From a virus, in UHGV virus genome UHGV-0087644: DNA of 13,730 bases; one strand, written 5' to 3'. Below are positions 2,684 through 8,509 of the stretch, in pieces (position 1 is the first letter of the stretch; each line of letters begins with the position of its first letter). Position numbers and translations under genes: made by a program. The notes beneath the pieces are model-generated. The model had not been told where the DNA came from. It saw only the letters and a program-made list of their open reading frames with translations, and searched no databases.

Positions 2684-3288
2684 TAAGCAGCAGCTCCTTC
2701 TAATTCGTCTCGTCTGATGTTGTAAACGTCCTGCGCTTTGTGCTGCTCCGGTGTGCCTTCGAGCATCTTCCACGCTTTGGCGAACGCCTGTTTAAGCTCT
2801 TCTACGGTGTTTTTCTGCATTGCTGCGTCAGTGAATGCTTTTAGAACCTGTTCAGGTGTAGGTGATGGTTTTGATTGCTTTGCTGCTGCGTTCTGCTGAT
2901 GTTTATGCTCGTCGGTATCTGCATCTTTCGCATCATCAATGCCGAACAAACCATTGAGGCAATACTTGCGTGCATAAGAGCTTGTAGCTCCCGTAACTTG
3001 TGCAGAATCCATTCCTTTCTTGCTTTCTTCCTCTCGTGCAAGAGCGGTTGCCGTATGACTGTTTTCGCCATCGGTAATAGTTGCCGTGGCTTTCACGTAA
3101 TACCGATCACCAATCAACACAACTTCATCGCTGATTGATAAAAACAGACCATTCAGTAACGGCTTAACGCCTTCAAGAATGTCTTCGCAGCTTCTGTATT
3201 TATATTTACCGAATGAGTTGTACTGATTCTTTGGCGCGTTCAGATTCTCCTGAATGGCTGCCAGCCTTGCATAAAATTCTTTGCTCAT
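2683..3288 (-). CDS. erf: Erf, essential recombination function (ssDNA annealing) protein
   Basis: Track ORF 2683-3318; sequence from MSKEFYARLAAIQENLNAPKNQYNSFGKYKYRSCEDILEG matches my recollection of P22 Erf. Start placed at ATG 3288 because the 3318 start is a TTG without SD. Confidence 0.8.
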   Translation of the reverse strand: MSKEFYARLAAIQENLNAPKNQYNSFGKYKYRSCEDILEGVKPLLNGLFLSISDEVVLIGDRYYVKATATITDGENSHTATALAREEESKKGMDSAQVTGATSSYARKYCLNGLFGIDDAKDADTDEHKHQQNAAAKQSKPSPTPEQVLKAFTDAAMQKNTVEELKQAFAKAWKMLEGTPEQHKAQDVYNIRRDELEGAAA

Positions 3289-3837: not shown

Positions 3838-4806
3838 TTAGTAGGTTATTTTTGTTGCGAATACTTCGCCTTTTACGATGGCTGTTATGATATTTTTAGC
3901 AACATCTTCTGATGCGCCAACCTTGATAAGGTCAGCAAGTATTTTGTTATTTACTTCTTTCCGGTGAGCTTTATCCTTTGCTCTACGCTCTTCTTCGTCC
4001 TTGATTCTTTTTCCTTCTGCTATTCTGGCTTGCTCTTTTGCTTCAGCCTCGCGCCGGATTCGTTCAGCCTCCTCCTGTGCTTTTCGGCGTTCTGCTTCAA
4101 TTGCCGCCTGCTTTTCTCTTTCAGCTCGTTCTGCTGCCTCTTTTGCTTCGCGCTGTGCTCGTTGCTCGGCTTCAATGCGTTCACGCTCTGCACGTTCCGC
4201 TGCGGCCTTAGCTTCTGCTTCTCGCCTTGCTGCTGCTTCAATTTCGGCTTTTGCCTTTGCTTCGGCTTCTGCTCTGGCTTTCTCTTCAGCTTCTCTTTTT
4301 AAGCGTTCTTCATACTCTCGCTTTTCCTGCTCCGCTTTGAGTCTTGCCTCTTCTCTTTGGCGGTCAAATTCGCGATCCATCAAAATAGCTATTTCATGGT
4401 CAGACTCAATTTGCTTTGCGAGAGCTTCAGCTGCTGCCTTAGCTTCTTCTTCGGCTTTAATCCGTGCCTGTTCCTCCTCATAATCAGTAAGAGGCTGGCG
4501 CGCCTTGGCTTTCAGTTCATCAAGGCGATCGCGCACTGTCTTGCGGTTGGCATCAATTAGCTTTGGAATTTCCTTCAGTTCAGCAACAAGGTCTTTGCCA
4601 AGACCATCGAGATATGTTTTCGTCTGCGCAACTTTATACGCCAGAGAAGCGATCTCCTTTCTGCCCTTTGCCGTTGTGATATCAGGCACAAAGGACATAA
4701 CTTCACGTTCAACCCTTTGAAGGATTTCTTCAATCTGGTCGGCAGACTGAAATACAGTCATTGCATTTGCTTTTTCAATAACAACTAAATCTGTTACTTC
4801 ACTCAT
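3838..4806 (-). CDS. coiled-coil protein with long E/R/K/A-rich helical segment, function unknown
   Basis: 322-aa track ORF; ATG 4806 with SD GGAGG; folded-looking N-terminal about 110 aa, then about 160 aa of charged low-complexity helix (EAEAKAKAEIEAAARREAEAKAAAERAERE...), then short C-terminal domain ending KITY. Confidence 0.7.
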   Translation of the reverse strand: MSEVTDLVVIEKANAMTVFQSADQIEEILQRVEREVMSFVPDITTAKGRKEIASLAYKVAQTKTYLDGLGKDLVAELKEIPKLIDANRKTVRDRLDELKAKARQPLTDYEEEQARIKAEEEAKAAAEALAKQIESDHEIAILMDREFDRQREEARLKAEQEKREYEERLKREAEEKARAEAEAKAKAEIEAAARREAEAKAAAERAERERIEAEQRAQREAKEAAERAEREKQAAIEAERRKAQEEAERIRREAEAKEQARIAEGKRIKDEEERRAKDKAHRKEVNNKILADLIKVGASEDVAKNIITAIVKGEVFATKITY

Positions 4807-4818
4807 ATATCCTCCGTC

Positions 4819-4846
4819 AAAAAATTGCCCTCACACTGGAGGGCAA
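4819..4846 (-). terminator. rho-independent terminator candidate (minus strand) just upstream of the coiled-coil gene
   Basis: Perfect 8-bp stem TTGCCCTC/GAGGGCAA (4825-4832 / 4839-4846) with 6-nt loop; A6 run at 4819-4824 on the plus strand gives a U-run after the hairpin on the minus transcript. Confidence 0.55.
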
Positions 4847-4937
4847 AGAAGATTTCCAATAATCAGAACAAGTCGGCTCCTGTTTAGTTACGAGCGACAT
4901 TGCCCACATAGCAGACTCGCAAATCTGCTATATGTGC

Positions 4938-5099
4938 TTATTCGCATCGCATGACAACATCAAATTTTTCGAGATTACTTTGTCGCAACAATCCCTCTTC
5001 TACGCGGTCAGCTTTTCTATAATTATCAAATTCGAAATGTTTAATTACTTCTTTCGTTTCTCGCTCTATAACTTCAACGATGTATTTCTTATTCATCAT
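4938..5099 (-). CDS. hypothetical small protein (53 aa)
   Basis: ORF MMNKKYIVEVIERETKEVIKHFEFDNYRKADRVEEGLLRQSNLEKFDVVMRCE, not in track; ATG overlaps upstream stop (ATGA). Confidence 0.3.
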   Translation of the reverse strand: MMNKKYIVEVIERETKEVIKHFEFDNYRKADRVEEGLLRQSNLEKFDVVMRCE

Positions 5100-5395
5100 T
5101 CTTCCCCAAGAGCTTTGCTGATTGCTGACTGTGCTTTCGATACTTCATCAGGATAATGGTCATTCCAGTTTTGCTTGTATGCCTTGTTTAGCATCGCTTG
5201 CAGGGCATTTAAAAGGTCTGGTGCTGCCGCTATCAGATTCATATCTTCTTTGCTAACGATTAGTGATGAGTGACCATCCTTCATGACATAAGAGTCGATG
5301 ACACCACCATCTTTACCTGTTGCTTGACTGCTTAATCGCAGAAAGCTGTTACTTGTCCACCATTTCCATGGGCCGGGTGTATAATTCATATTCAC
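5096..5395 (-). CDS. hypothetical phage protein (possibly Ead/Ea22-like C-terminal region, tentative)
   Basis: 99-aa track ORF; SD GAGGTG before tandem ATGs at 5395/5389; LIAAAPDLLNALQAM motif recalled from Ea22-like prophage proteins. Confidence 0.5.
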   Translation of the reverse strand: MNMNYTPGPWKWWTSNSFLRLSSQATGKDGGVIDSYVMKDGHSSLIVSKEDMNLIAAAPDLLNALQAMLNKAYKQNWNDHYPDEVSKAQSAISKALGEE

Positions 5396-5428
5396 CTCTG
5401 TTGTTTACGCCAAAAATAAAGGCCACCA

Positions 5429-5629
5429 TCAGGCAGCCTTGTTATTCTGTTTACCAAGTTCTCTGGCAATCATTGCCGTCGTTCGTATTGCCCATTTATC
5501 GACATATTTCCCATCTTCCATTACAGGAAACATTTCTTCAGGCTTAACCATGCATTCCGATTGCAGCTTGCATCCATTGCATCGCTTGAATTGTCCACAC
5601 CATTGATTTTTATCAATAGTCGTAGTCAT
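5429..5629 (-). CDS. ral: Ral-like restriction-alleviation protein
   Basis: 66-aa track ORF MTTTIDKNQWCGQFKRCNGCKLQSECMVKPEEMFPVMEDGKYVDKWAIRTTAMIARELGKQNNKAA; matches my recollection of lambda Ral (same length, same N-terminus). Confidence 0.6.
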   Translation of the reverse strand: MTTTIDKNQWCGQFKRCNGCKLQSECMVKPEEMFPVMEDGKYVDKWAIRTTAMIARELGKQNNKAA

Positions 5630-5699
5630 ACGGATAGTCCTGGTATTGTTCCATCACATCCTGAGGATGCTCTTCGAACTCTTCAAATTCTTCTTCCAT
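5613..5699 (-). CDS. possible 28-aa highly acidic peptide
   Basis: ATG 5699 preceded by GAGGTG; MEEEFEEFEEHPQDVMEQYQDYPYDYDY; overlaps ral start by 17 nt in another frame. Could be spurious. Confidence 0.2.
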   Translation of the reverse strand: MEEEFEEFEEHPQDVMEQYQDYPYDYDY

Positions 5700-5842
5700 A
5701 TCTCACCTCAAATAAGTGGTTTGCTGCGAAAGTAAATACGCTTAAGTTACCTGTTATTTATCCCACCAAGTTCCGTATCTATCTATCCAGTTACACCAAT
5801 CGTCAAACCCCAGCGATTTTTGTTTGCCGCTTCGATATTTGG

Positions 5843-6025
5843 TCAGCGTACCTCTACTCCTGATGCGCCTCCATCGGGGTCAGGCGACCCATTAAAAGAC
5901 TTTCTGTGCTGAATTTCGTAACGAAGCGTCTTAATCGAAACGTCCACGGCATCGGCAAAACTGATGCCTTCTTCATTGGCCAGTTCCTGAACTACTCTTT
6001 TCAGTTCATTGTCCAAATTTTCCAT
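5843..6025 (-). CDS. hypothetical small protein (60 aa)
   Basis: Track ORF 5843-6049 trimmed to ATG 6025, preceded by AGGGGTGAGGG; MENLDNELKRVVQELANEEGISFADAVDVSIKTLRYEIQ... Confidence 0.45.
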   Translation of the reverse strand: MENLDNELKRVVQELANEEGISFADAVDVSIKTLRYEIQHRKSFNGSPDPDGGASGVEVR

Positions 6026-6100
6026 ACCCTCACCCCTTTGTTTATTCACCGCAGGCCACTCGACCCGCTCGATTCGTTCTGTGCGTAATGCTTGCGCCGA

Positions 6101-6259
6101 TCAGACACCCCAAACTCTGAACCACCAACGAAGAAACATGACGACTGGCGGGGTAGACAGAAGAATGGCCGCATTGATAAGAAGAATGGCCGCAGTGATA
6201 AGCAGACCCAAAATGACCCCCTGCACTACGACCGGGAGTTTTTCATACAGTTTTTTCAT
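6101..6259 (-). CDS. small single-pass membrane peptide (52 aa)
   Basis: Not in track; SD AAGGAG 5 nt before ATG 6259; MKKLYEKLPVVVQGVILGLLITAAILLINAAILLSTPPVVMFLRWWFRVWGV has one hydrophobic helix; contains an in-frame 21-bp tandem duplication. Confidence 0.4.
   Translation of the reverse strand: MKKLYEKLPVVVQGVILGLLITAAILLINAAILLSTPPVVMFLRWWFRVWGV
6160..6201. repeat. 2 x 21-bp tandem direct repeat (one mismatch) inside the membrane-peptide ORF
   Basis: GAAGAATGGCCGCATTGATAA / GAAGAATGGCCGCAGTGATAA; in-frame, encoding duplicated LITAAIL/LINAAIL heptads. Confidence 0.6.
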
Positions 6260-6261
6260 GG

Positions 6262-6603
6262 CTACTCCTTAAGAAGGCGCTCAAGGAATGCGCCATTACA
6301 GTCAATTACATCGATGATCTCTTTGGCTAATGAATCGATATCGTCGCTCGATTCGAAGTCATCCTGTGGGATGTAAAAGCCACCCTCAGTTTTAAACATA
6401 ATTTCCTTGACGGTTAATGCTGCAACCTCATACATAAAGCCATAAACAATGCGTCGAGGGGTGTTATACCTGAGTCCGAGGATCTTTAATTTTTCTGACT
6501 CCTGAGTCAGCTGGTCGTATGCCTTTACCAGCTCCGCTATCAGTCCCTTTTTCAGCTCACCACGCAGTACGTACATCCCGTTAGCCGTTTTATTTTCCAT
6601 CAC
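6262..6603 (-). CDS. hypothetical protein (113 aa)
   Basis: Track ORF; start overlaps upstream stop (6600-6603); no motif recognised. Confidence 0.55.
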   Translation of the reverse strand: MMENKTANGMYVLRGELKKGLIAELVKAYDQLTQESEKLKILGLRYNTPRRIVYGFMYEVAALTVKEIMFKTEGGFYIPQDDFESSDDIDSLAKEIIDVIDCNGAFLERLLKE

Positions 6604-6764
6604 CGAACCTCACTCGCTGTTACTTTGAAATATTGCCGCCGGGCATCGCGTATCTTCTCCAGCTCGCAGTTCTTCGCTGACTGGTGATACTTGCTGATGT
6701 GGCAGACCGGAGTGCGTGGATCGAAGTCACGACCGCATACCGGGCACTTGATGCTGTTCTTCAT
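6600..6764 (-). CDS. small zinc-ribbon protein (54 aa)
   Basis: Track ORF 6600-6821 trimmed to ATG 6764, preceded by GAGGTGG; MKNSIKCPVCGRDFDPRTPVCHISKYH has a CxxC...C..H arrangement. Confidence 0.5.
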   Translation of the reverse strand: MKNSIKCPVCGRDFDPRTPVCHISKYHQSAKNCELEKIRDARRQYFKVTASEVR

Positions 6765-6874
6765 GGGCCACCTCAGATTAATGCGATGGATTTGCCCTTC
6801 GTTTTCTGGCGACCAACACAAGTCACACCCATTTCACTACGTGGCTTGCGGTAGTAAATTATATTTGTTCAGAC

Positions 6875-6897
6875 AATAAAAAACCCACCGAAGTGGG
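6875..6897 (-). terminator. rho-independent terminator candidate (minus strand; tL1-like position after the first gene downstream of N)
   Basis: 5-bp GC stem CCCAC/GTGGG with CGAA loop (6884-6897), abutting the stop of the upstream ORF, followed on the minus transcript by a U-run (plus-strand ATAAAAAA at 6876-6883). Confidence 0.45.
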
Positions 6898-7242
6898 CTA
6901 TGACCATTTTTTATTTGGATTTCGTTGGTGAGCGTGATTAACAACTCTGTGCATTACATCCTCATATTTTTCATCTTCAATTTTTTCGACATCGCGAGGA
7001 AATGGTGTTGCTAATGCTTTGTCAACTTTGTCCATTGGTTCTTCATTAATCTTATATTCAGGACCGTCATCTATAGCATTAAATCCAGGTGTTACACCGT
7101 TTTTTAATGCATATGCTATCCTTTTTTCCCATCTCGCTATTCTCCTCCTGTCTCGAGATGTAAGACCTCTATCAGATACTTTTCTGTTTTGTCCGCGGTC
7201 AGGATTAACATAAATAGTCTTTTTCACCATAAGCATACTCAA
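6898..7242 (-). CDS. hypothetical protein with arginine-rich N-terminal region (114 aa)
   Basis: Track ORF; start overlaps N stop (ATGA); SRDRRRIARWEKRIAYALKNG is basic; followed directly by a terminator. Confidence 0.5.
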   Translation of the reverse strand: MSMLMVKKTIYVNPDRGQNRKVSDRGLTSRDRRRIARWEKRIAYALKNGVTPGFNAIDDGPEYKINEEPMDKVDKALATPFPRDVEKIEDEKYEDVMHRVVNHAHQRNPNKKWS

Positions 7243-7544
7243 TAAGCACCGTACGGTAGTTTACTGTACAATTTTATTTTTTGGACTGCATGTATTTTGT
7301 TTCCTAACGGGTTTGAATCTTTGTAATAAATACTTCTATTTTTTCGAACGACTTCTTCTTTCTTCTTGCAGCAAAGGCTTCCTAGTGATGCTGCTTTGTC
7401 TGCTCTGACGCAACCAGAGAGCTTTAGCGCAATTTTTCGCGCCAGTGCTTCATTACTGCGTCGCTCGGCAATAAGTTCTGCTCTGCGAGCTTTGTAGCGG
7501 CTTTTTGCCGTACCTTTGGATTCTTTCCAGACAATGGTTACCAT
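7239..7544 (-). CDS. N: N-like transcription antitermination protein (phi21-type arginine-rich motif)
   Basis: Track ORF 7239-7574 trimmed to ATG 7544 (SD AGGAG); N-terminus MVTIVWKESKGTAKSRYKARRAELIAERR matches the phi21 N arginine-rich RNA-binding peptide as I recall it; nutL lies upstream. Confidence 0.75.
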   Translation of the reverse strand: MVTIVWKESKGTAKSRYKARRAELIAERRSNEALARKIALKLSGCVRADKAASLGSLCCKKKEEVVRKNRSIYYKDSNPLGNKIHAVQKIKLYSKLPYGAY

Positions 7545-7654
7545 AATGGTCTCCTTTAAGTGGCTTTGGCGCATGACGCGTCGAGGTGCTTATCTTCTCG
7601 ATCGCTGTCTTGCAGCTGCAATTCGCGCCATCCCCAAAACCACTCAAGTTCTGG

Positions 7655-7695
7655 TCTCAACGGTTAGGTTGAGAGTCCGCCGATGTTAAAGAGCC
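7655..7695 (-). promoter_or_regulatory. nutL: boxA plus boxB hairpin
   Basis: Minus-strand reading: boxA GCTCTTTAACA (plus 7684-7695), 9-nt spacer, boxB with 7-bp stem TCTCAAC/GTTGAGA and loop CUAACC (plus 7655-7674). Between the predicted pL and N. Confidence 0.6.
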
Positions 7696-7740
7696 TGCCA
7701 ATCTGTTCCGTTTGGCTTCCAGCGTCCTGCTGATGGCTTA

Positions 7741-7770
7741 AATTTAAGACTTCTTAATTTATTGGTCAAG
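7741..7770 (-). promoter_or_regulatory. pL promoter candidate with overlapping oL operator
   Basis: Minus strand: -35 TTGACC (plus 7764-7769), about 17-bp spacer, weak -10 TAAATT; perfect palindrome TTAAGACTTCTTAA at 7744-7757 overlaps the spacer/-10. Confidence 0.4.
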
Positions 7771-7834
7771 TGCATTTTTGAAGAAAACTTAATTTTATGG
7801 GCGTGAATTTAGTTTGTCTTTGATTTTTAACGGG

Positions 7835-7860
7835 AAATAAAAAAGGGGCGAAAGCCCCTT
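7835..7860 (-). terminator. rho-independent terminator for the cI transcript
   Basis: Stem AAGGGGC/GCCCCTT (7843-7849 / 7854-7860) with GAAA loop, followed on the minus strand by UUUUAUUU; overlaps the cI stop codon. Confidence 0.55.
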
Positions 7861-8509
7861 AAGGAAGGTTTGCTAGCTTGGCATCAACGACAACGCCAAT
7901 GATTTTACAGTTCCCATTGATTTCAATCATTGGGTATTGTGGATTGAGTGGTTTCAGGAATTTTCTACCGGCATCAATAACTAACTTTTTGAATGTCGCC
8001 TCGTTTTCCCCTTCAAGTTTGGCGACTACCAGCTTTCCATTACGTGGTTCGACTTCTGGGTCGACGAGAATAATCATCCCCTCAGGAATACTCAGTCCTG
8101 CCGGGGCAGTCATTGAATCGCCTTTAACGTCGAGCCAAAAAGAGTCTTCAGAACAATCTACCGTTGTGTCGTACCAGTTATCTATTGCACGCCTATGATA
8201 TGGCTCTACAGCTTCCATCCAACATCCTGCGCTTACCCAACTAATTAGAGGATACGAACCTCTTGGATCATGCCTGCTGTGATAGGCAATGTTTGAAAGA
8301 CTATCCTCTCCTTTCAACAGGTAATCAGGGGAGCACTGCAAAGCCTTGGCTAAGGCCAATAGGTTTTCGCCATTGGGCTCAGTTTCAGATCGCTCCCATT
8401 GGGAAATAGCAACATTAGACACGCCAACCATCTTGCCAAGGGCAGCCTGCCTAATCTTGAGTTCTTTTCTGCGAGCGCGAATACGCTCACCCATCAGTTG
8501 TGTATTCAT
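7859..8509 (-). CDS. cI: CI-type prophage repressor (HTH + S24 LexA-like peptidase domain)
   Basis: 216-aa track ORF; N-terminal HTH (QAALGKMVGVSNVAISQWER); C-terminal FWLDVKGDSMTAPAGLSIPEGMIILVDP...ATFKKL...FLKPLNPQYPMIE closely parallels the lambda CI C-terminal domain. Confidence 0.9.
   Translation of the reverse strand: MNTQLMGERIRARRKELKIRQAALGKMVGVSNVAISQWERSETEPNGENLLALAKALQCSPDYLLKGEDSLSNIAYHSRHDPRGSYPLISWVSAGCWMEAVEPYHRRAIDNWYDTTVDCSEDSFWLDVKGDSMTAPAGLSIPEGMIILVDPEVEPRNGKLVVAKLEGENEATFKKLVIDAGRKFLKPLNPQYPMIEINGNCKIIGVVVDAKLANLP

Follow-up and report, generated by a model that had tools for sequence, protein, structure and literature searches.

The 13,730-nucleotide virus genome UHGV-0087644 (the window, meaning this whole stretch of DNA) contains the immunity region and the early region of a prophage of the lambda/P22 type, reading leftward on the minus strand, on which all features described below are located unless another strand is given. 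The cluster of small genes between its Nun-like factor and a coiled-coil gene (4938-6764) consists of at least three independently exchangeable modules: a cassette of approximately 1 kb with the open reading frames (ORFs) Zn54, p112, ORF3 and p60, which is itself nested; the pair orf28-ral; and the pair p97-p53. Recombination within boundary sequences or flanking genes has exchanged these modules and has left behind the 3' ends of a lambda-type N gene, a Zn-finger gene and an Sf6 gp36-like gene as relics. With moderate confidence, the interval as a whole can be read as the N-proximal part of the pL operon of this lambda/P22-type prophage, an accessory region made up of exchangeable modules whose genes would serve as N-dependent accessory genes of the lytic cycle. 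The locus is an ordinary example of an already-recognised kind of phage accessory region, not a new kind of system.

Three exchangeable modules behind nun

When positions 4700-7300 were compared with 5,426 complete Escherichia coli genomes and positions 4700-7000 with 50,697 phage records, no genome (0/5,426) and no phage record (0/50,697) covered 80% or more of the query, the best coverage being 56%. The cassette by itself was found in three of the 5,426 E. coli genomes, one of the 50,697 phage records (Wanchaivirus PDP110P2), three IMG/VR contigs and two metagenome contigs, and in none of 185,579 species-representative genomes. All of its copies are approximately 99% identical. They are preceded by four kinds of genes (a 21-type N with nun, a lambda-type N, a third type of N, or a 138-amino-acid (aa) gene that is not N) and followed by four kinds of neighbours (orf28-ral, a 156-aa ORF, an Nmad5-family gene, or an Sf6 gene-34-like membrane protein), and they occupy at least five different prophage backgrounds. 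Such near-identity between varied flanks fits a young module that has been moved by recombination at conserved edges. The first-pass annotation of this DNA had proposed a variable accessory compartment, and comparison with related prophages bears this out: the block is not invariant core, but variable cargo between conserved edges, divided into three relic-edged modules of which one is nested.

The edges of the modules coincide with gene relics and with a boundary sequence annotated in Sf6. Upstream of the cassette, positions 6771-6850 retain the 3' end of a lambda-type N (...SEMGVTCVGRQKTKGKSIALI*), which together with the sequence up to the nun terminator forms a common boundary sequence; positions 6798-6880 are common to approximately 660 E. 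coli genomes. In other loci (L001-L003 and L007), an intact lambda-type N with the variant C-terminus ...SEMGVTCVGRQKTKGKSIALI ends at this place, its stop codon 8 nucleotides (nt) before the ATG of Zn54. The position of the relic on the 3' side of the nun terminator suggests that a lambda-type N was once present here and was later replaced. The left edge of the cassette is marked by the relic 3' end of an Sf6 gene-36-like ORF (DDWCNWIDRYGTWWDK*; 5754-5804), recognized by comparing the Sf6 gp36 translation with the window, and matches from common ral-bearing prophages reach up to 5804. The junctions are located at start codons (5700 and 6022-6025) or inside conserved 3' ends, with flanks of high identity abutting unrelated DNA.

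A further exchange is nested within the cassette. Two pieces of the window, 6775-6637 (98.6% identical to positions 3065-3203 of L010, a metagenomic prophage) and 6091-6022 (100% identical to L010 positions 3207-3276), are contiguous in L010, making up there a 58-aa Zn-finger gene that ends ...RRKHYAQNESSGSSGLR. An inserted or replaced segment of 545 base pairs (bp) (6092-6636) splits them in the window; it contains the new tail of Zn54, p112 and ORF3, and it has a G+C content of 46% as opposed to 56-58% for the pieces. The relic 3' end of the 58-aa allele (...RRKHYAQNESSGSSGLR*) and the ribosome-binding site of the next gene are located at 6022-6099, as judged from the tails of P0238, P0240 and P0241 and from the DNA match to L010; this old Zn-finger 3' end persists out of frame at 6099-6046. 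Both in L010 and in another locus (L013), HNH genes adjoin the Zn-finger gene.

The other two modules are delimited by comparison with lambda. Positions 5397-5724, which contain orf28-ral, are 97% identical in DNA sequence to lambda 34055-34381, and positions 4807-4903 are 95% identical to lambda 33911-34009; the homologous site in the Sf6 record is annotated 'tL2A' within a 'bsq4 boundary sequence'. These two pieces are 46 nt apart in lambda but 494 nt apart in the window, where p97 and p53 lie between them. The p97-p53 module is a second insertion, consisting of a translationally coupled pair.

All seven minus-strand ORFs originally listed for the cluster are present. The start coordinate of 5096 given for it excludes the last of them, a 53-aa ORF (4938-5099), and an eighth ORF (orf28, 5613-5699) and a third terminator (5440-5419) had been missed. 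The translational coupling attributed to these genes is real at Zn54/p112 (TGATG), p112/ORF3 (a gap of 2 nt), orf28/ral (an overlap of 17 nt) and p97/p53 (ATGATG), and a Shine-Dalgarno-like sequence precedes each ORF of the cluster. Profile searches with each ORF gave family support for Ral (E 1.6e-48), p97 (phrog_1273, E 5e-25) and p53 (phrog_6949, E 3e-40). The opinion that only Ral is recognizable was thus nearly right; it overlooked the match to lambda orf28 and the membership of p97 in a named but uncharacterised family, PF27050.

In operon position and gene order, the window agrees with the N-to-cIII interval of lambda (N, sieB, orf28, ral, tL2a, ea10) and its counterparts in Sf6 and phage L, the order being an N-type gene, a variable slot, orf28-ral, a terminator or boundary sequence, and a larger gene before cIII and kil. 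Whereas lambda has its own N upstream, the window has nun after a 21-type N; whereas lambda has sieB on the opposite strand between the stop codon of N and orf28, the window has the co-oriented four-ORF cassette of approximately 1 kb; and in the place of ea10 the window has the coiled-coil gene. Modular mosaicism whose junctions lie at the limits of genes or at boundary sequences is familiar in lambdoid phages from the Hendrix/Casjens literature. The window is the same in kind, and adds to it a nested insertion or replacement, located within the Zn-finger gene, whose former 3' end is kept.

Most genes of the early-left operon have no known function, sieB is variably present or absent, and phage L is without the sieB that is found in the early left operon of P22 (PMC8022706). 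Accessory regions of this kind were defined as hotspots by Silas et al., who screened 200 of their genes and included the ral region (bioRxiv 10.1101/2023.04.06.535777). Those regions (bioRxiv 10.1101/2023.04.06.535777; Nat Commun 2025, PMC12373910) and the window share small variable genes, conserved flanks and the counter-defence gene ral; variable content, conserved flanks, small genes and a known counter-defence gene, the features by which Silas et al. define such regions, are all found here. One gene of their collection, orf47, is the Sf6 gene-34-like protein that adjoins the cassette in two loci (L003 and L005). Another, orf184 of mEp213, comes from the equivalent region and triggers the gop-beta-cII abortive-infection system (bioRxiv 10.1101/2023.04.06.535777); it is absent from the window. 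Peptide signatures of Zn54, p112, ORF3, p60, orf28 and p97 were not found in the accessible portion of the supplementary text of Silas et al.

The Zn54-p112-ORF3-p60 cassette and its variation

Zn54 (6600-6764) encodes a basic protein of 54 aa that had been described as a CxxC zinc ribbon. A single CxxC (C7 and C10) is indeed present, but it is accompanied by C21, H22, H27 and C33, all six residues being invariant in ten variants, and the only Pfam matches are sub-threshold and of the C2H2/C2HC type: zf-Di19 (21.3 bits, cut-off 27.5) and Rad50_zn_hook (20.5 bits, cut-off 24.3). The Zn-finger domain is found repeatedly in the gene that comes first behind N, joined to five different C-terminal tails. 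Comparison of Zn54 codons 1-43 with diverged copies gave ratios of synonymous to non-synonymous changes of 3:0, 3:0, 6:0 and 8:8. The synonymous excess and the recurrence with five tails indicate that the Zn-finger gene is constrained and that its 3' end is a recombination edge.

The next gene, p112 (6262-6600; 113 aa from 6603), encodes an acidic, predicted helical ORFan, and its start overlaps the stop codon of Zn54. Word-indexed and exhaustive HMMER searches covering 5.8 billion clusters and 1.84 billion representatives yielded only copies that are at least 99% identical, and p112 is absent from the 185,579 species-representative genomes. A match to a repetitive 719-aa protein was rejected as spurious. 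The AlphaFold2 single-sequence model of p112, with a predicted local distance difference test score (pLDDT) of 53, is too poor for fold comparison. The last gene of the cassette, p60 (5843-6025; 60 aa, or 68 aa from a GTG at 6049), is also acidic and has no relatives outside the cassette.

ORF3 (6101-6259), between p112 and p60, is the weakest gene candidate of the cluster. As first described, it is open in the window as a single-transmembrane peptide of 52 aa, hydrophobic according to its grand average of hydropathy (GRAVY, 1.29), with a strong Shine-Dalgarno sequence (AAGGAG) and a protein-like look; the transmembrane frame, however, is kept in only four of ten copies (52 aa in three, 45 aa in one). 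The other copies either run into the Zn-finger relic (3/10) or continue in the third frame (3/10). The instability is due to indels at a G-run near 6221 (+5, +1 and -1) and to a 21-bp repeat unit (6174-6194) that some copies have and others lack. The exact products of the alleles are found on 248, 217 and 16 contigs, which indicates that the alleles are real population variants. In a metagenomic copy (L018), an in-frame, single-repeat ORF3 of 45 aa occurs together with a nonsense mutation that shortens Zn54 to 33 aa. On the basis of its sequence, ORF3 probably encodes a small membrane peptide, dispensable and possibly toxic, which in many prophages is inactivated or decaying.

It is very improbable that the frame heterogeneity of ORF3 constitutes a regulated switch, in which the G-run and the 21-bp repeat would act in phase variation or programmed frameshifting. 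The indels are concentrated at the G4-G6 run and the tandem 21-bp unit (approximately 29 of 44 variable alignment columns) while the remaining cassette is nearly invariant, the three ORF3 frames are open to 6101, 6046 and 6043, and the two major alleles are the abundant ones, but a few heavily sequenced clones may account for the contig counts. The frames that do not encode the transmembrane peptide resemble out-of-frame sequence, being rich in Cys, Ser and Arg, and one of them is the frame that runs into the Zn-finger relic. A G-run of four to six is short for the efficient slippage of contingency loci, and no RNA family was detected at ORF3 by Rfam, the only means by which a slippery heptamer or stimulatory structure was sought.

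A somewhat unlikely alternative is that the cassette, or p112, ORF3 and p60 as parts of it, is functionless hitch-hiking DNA, its ORFs open by chance or decaying and its spread owed to recombination-prone boundaries. The cassette segment is full of gene relics; p112 and p60 have no relatives other than near-identical copies; the Prokaryotic Genome Annotation Pipeline (PGAP) never calls ORF3, and in two of three genomes it does not call Zn54. The same pipeline annotates p60 as 60 aa. Among the ten cassette copies, the point changes are mostly non-synonymous (three synonymous, six non-synonymous, one nonsense in Zn54 of L018, and one stop-loss in L005 that extends p60 to an 80-aa product), and ORF3 occurs in three frames. 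On the other hand, p112 is intact in all ten copies and the exact protein is found on 360 contigs, each ORF has a Shine-Dalgarno sequence at proper spacing, the stop/start overlaps are typical of coupled genes, and diverged copies of the Zn-finger domain show purifying selection. The occurrence of the cassette at approximately 99% identity in at least five prophage backgrounds suggests recent spread, which would also explain the scarcity of informative substitutions: these are too few for a ratio of non-synonymous to synonymous substitution rates (dN/dS), and p112, ORF3 and p60 lack the divergence needed for a coding test.

The orf28-ral and p97-p53 modules and the downstream boundary

The small gene orf28 (5613-5699; 28 aa, very acidic with a net charge of approximately -12) is an exact match to lambda orf28 (AAA96576.1), and it overlaps the start of ral by the same 17 nt as in lambda (34271-34357). 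The product of ral (5429-5629), a restriction-alleviation protein, matches PF11058 over residues 1-66 of 66 (162.5 bits, cut-off 25) and phrog_1055 (E 1.7e-49). It is identical to AFH20603.1, the orf87 of HK544 screened by Silas et al., which was among three known inhibitors of type I restriction-modification that raised phage plaquing, a counter-defence activity (bioRxiv 10.1101/2023.04.06.535777).

The first gene of the downstream pair, p97 (5096-5389; 99 aa from a GTG at 5395), belongs to PF27050 ('Phage_P22_Y8K6') by a precomputed match on its 99%-identical cluster representative (P0070), and PF27050 is also assigned to all the relatives listed (120 listed of 379 clusters). The family comprises at least 379 clusters across the Enterobacterales, including members in the P22-like phages BTP1, SE1 and ST104. 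Its proteins combine a near-invariant N-terminal domain (TPGPWxWWTSNSFLRLS...GKDG.VIDS...DGH), a hypervariable middle, of which residues 63-85 or so of p97 are one of many unrelated variants, and a conserved C-terminal helix. The AlphaFold2 model of p97 is a small beta-meander with a helical hairpin (pLDDT 78), for which no informative fold match was found, and a literature search for PF27050 or Y8K6 found nothing relevant. A 114-aa protein of Bas80 (L012, PQ850597.1 19211-19555) contains the C-terminal helical module of p97 (residues 47-97 approximately, 63% identity) and its gene directly precedes those of a ParB-like protein and a DNA methyltransferase, which is a contextual hint for p97.

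The second gene, p53 (4938-5099; 52 or 53 aa), has a start that overlaps the stop codon of p97. The exact protein is found on at least 1,000 contigs and is identical to library entry UDP0149, orf149 (ATN92755.1), of Silas et al. (bioRxiv 10.1101/2023.04.06.535777). The exact p97-p53 pair is complete in three of the 5,426 E. coli genomes, with partial matches in 155. In mEp213 (L020, JQ182733.1 31621-32057), a p97-like gene (39% identity) and a p53-like gene are located directly after N and are followed by an HK620-like N fragment; the pairing of PF27050 with p53 is thus kept even where identity is low, and mEp213, too, has a duplicated N remnant. An interpretation of the two 'N' annotations of mEp213 as an arrangement of N and Nun proved wrong, the order being N, a 62-aa ORF, the p97-like/p53-like pair and a second N-like fragment.

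The cluster ends at the conserved boundary sequence (4807-4903), which contains a tL2a-type terminator (4846-4825) identified by scanning, folding and comparison with lambda and Sf6. A short ORF that overlaps the tL2a hairpin (4817-4909; ...MSLVTKQEPTCSDYWKSSLPSSVRAIF) is kept in all eight loci examined, whatever their neighbours, and has no match among the PHROGs. Probably it is no gene, but just a part of the boundary/terminator sequence that is conserved here (lambda 33911-34009).

Operon setting, expression and possible roles

The operon begins beyond a cI-like repressor gene (7859-8509; Peptidase_S24 and helix-turn-helix domains). A promoter scan, which sees only consensus-like sigma-70 sites, detected a pL-like promoter (7741-7769; TTGACC-17-TAAATT) and a second site at 7820-7792 as the only such sites upstream of the cluster on the minus strand, and none on either strand in 4500-7740. 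Direct reading of the sequence identified a nutL region (7653-7693) with a boxA-like GGCTCTTTAACA (7693-7682) and a boxB-like hairpin TCTCAACC-TAAC-CGTTGAGA (7672-7653), which we take to be a nut site of the phage-21 type from general knowledge of nut sites and from the 21-type arginine-rich motif of the N encoded downstream. This antiterminator N (7239-7574; motif GTAKSRYKARRAELIAERR) matches phrog_271 (E 1e-31) and scores under the threshold for the Pfam family N_peptide.

The 21-type N is followed directly by a full-length nun of the HK022 type (6898-7230). Its product matches HK022 Nun (PDB 6alg_N) at E 7.6e-71, with residues 2-110 aligned to 1-109, and phrog_5632 at E 9e-71, and it has both the N-terminal arginine-rich motif and the C-terminal ...KKWS. 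Nun is an exclusion factor that blocks lambda-N-dependent transcription, and the adjacency of N and nun means that this prophage appears to encode both its own antiterminator and a factor that blocks that of lambda. The first-pass annotation had placed the cluster between N and a coiled-coil gene, but what adjoins the upstream terminator is nun and not an N gene.

Downstream of the interval are the Sf6 gene-33-like coiled-coil gene, Kil, ERF and Abc2. The coiled-coil protein (3838-4806; 322 aa), named from the annotation of Sf6 and matching phrog_1376 (E 8e-110), occupies the slot of lambda ea10. Distal to abc2 in the early-left operon is a 239-aa gene with an HNH_3 endonuclease domain (1113-1829).

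Both of the terminators said to bracket the cluster were found by scanning and fold as hairpins with T-runs: the one after nun (6899-6882), with a GC-rich stem of 7 bp, a UUCG loop and a predicted energy of -11 kcal/mol, and the tL2a-type terminator described above. The third (5419-5440), which overlaps the stop codon of ral, has a 9-bp stem and a T-run (-13.9 kcal/mol). Their presence, together with the co-orientation of the cluster with pL, its ribosome-binding sites and the lack of a promoter-like site of its own, points to products that would be made only after induction or infection. In a repressed lysogen the cluster would be silent. After induction or infection, the 21-type N would be loaded at nutL and RNA polymerase would read through the three terminators, resulting in early expression. 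In the loci L001-L003 and L007, which have no terminator between the stop codon of the lambda-type N and the Zn-finger ATG, the cassette would be co-transcribed with N. Ral would alleviate type I restriction, an activity established for the identical protein, and the other products may be non-essential accessory proteins of the lytic cycle, most likely for host takeover or counter-defence.

The same features bear on the possibility, considered quite unlikely, that the cassette is a functional substitute for sieB, namely a prophage-encoded superinfection-exclusion or abortive-infection module, with, for example, ORF3 as effector and the Zn-finger protein, p112 and p60 as sensors or regulators. 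The cassette occupies the exact slot of lambda sieB, and P22 likewise has sieB in its early left operon (PMC8022706). The neighbouring Nun is itself an exclusion factor, ORF3 is hydrophobic in the window, and its loss-of-frame alleles would fit a toxic effector. However, lambda sieB is on the opposite strand, an orientation in which it could be expressed even with pL repressed. The ORFs of the cassette, by contrast, run in the direction of pL, with no promoter-like site inside the cassette or upstream of it short of pL. Located behind the nun terminator here, and 8 nt after the N stop codon elsewhere, it should be silent in a repressed lysogen. Neither PADLOC, SieB nor any other defence family matched the cassette; no ORF on either strand has a Pfam or PHROG match to SieB, and a PHROG scan of the plus-strand ORFs (the orientation of sieB) and of two small minus-strand ORFs gave no match. 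The orientation, the lack of promoter-like sites within the cluster and its location behind terminators speak for roles in the lytic cycle rather than for exclusion by a prophage-expressed protein.

Searches for function were mostly unproductive. Scans of all ORFs against Pfam, PHROGs, NCBIfam and PADLOC returned only Ral, PHROGs of unknown function and the sub-threshold Zn-finger matches, and the eight small ORFs had no match in PADLOC-DB v2 at E <=0.1. PDB sequence searches with p112, p97, p60 and p53 produced nothing significant, a TFE winged-helix match at E 0.22 being taken as noise, and no Rfam family was found in 4500-8000 at E <=1. The DNA mimics Ocr and ArdA have isoelectric points (pI) near 4 (bioRxiv 10.1101/2023.04.06.535777). 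Among the acidic ORFs (p112, pI 4.84; p60, pI 4.61; orf28, pI 4.05), only orf28 reaches such a value, and neither p112 nor p60 resembles Ocr or ArdA by any match in Pfam or among solved structures. The combination of acidic p112, p60 and orf28 with basic Zn54 would fit small protein inhibitors, as it would many other roles.

Several observations weigh against the assignment of the interval to N-dependent lytic accessory genes. No function could be deduced by homology or fold for Zn54, p112, ORF3, p60, orf28, p97 or p53. The cassette copies show no sign of purifying selection, although the numbers are small (three synonymous versus six non-synonymous changes, n=10), and ORF3 is out of its transmembrane frame in six of ten copies. 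The orf149 that is identical to p53 is not named among the genes with phenotypes in the main text of Silas et al. (bioRxiv 10.1101/2023.04.06.535777), and was not found in the searched portion of the supplements of the Nat Commun 2025 article (PMC12373910). The dependence of expression on N is itself predicted from the sequence.

A bolder interpretation of the cassette, which is considered quite unlikely, is that Zn54-p112-ORF3-p60 may be a recently emerged counter-defence or inter-phage competition module spreading in lambdoid prophages of E. coli and Salmonella, in which the acidic, lineage-restricted p112 and p60 would inhibit a host immune system by a mechanism without a described homologue, and the frame-shifted ORF3 alleles would result from selection, in lysogens, against a membrane component that is toxic. 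If this were true, the p112/p60 cassette would be a very young, lineage-restricted example of counter-defence, caught in the midst of its spread.

At present the value of the locus is mainly descriptive, as a clean, nested example of module exchange in the lambdoid early-left operon with relics of the genes exchanged. Zn54, p112, p60 and p97 are candidates located beside a validated anti-restriction gene, and the best supported of the candidates for further study is the PF27050 family, with its invariant domain, hypervariable insert and breadth across the Enterobacterales. Should the unassigned genes prove to act on host defences, the known small counter-defence proteins of phages would gain new members.

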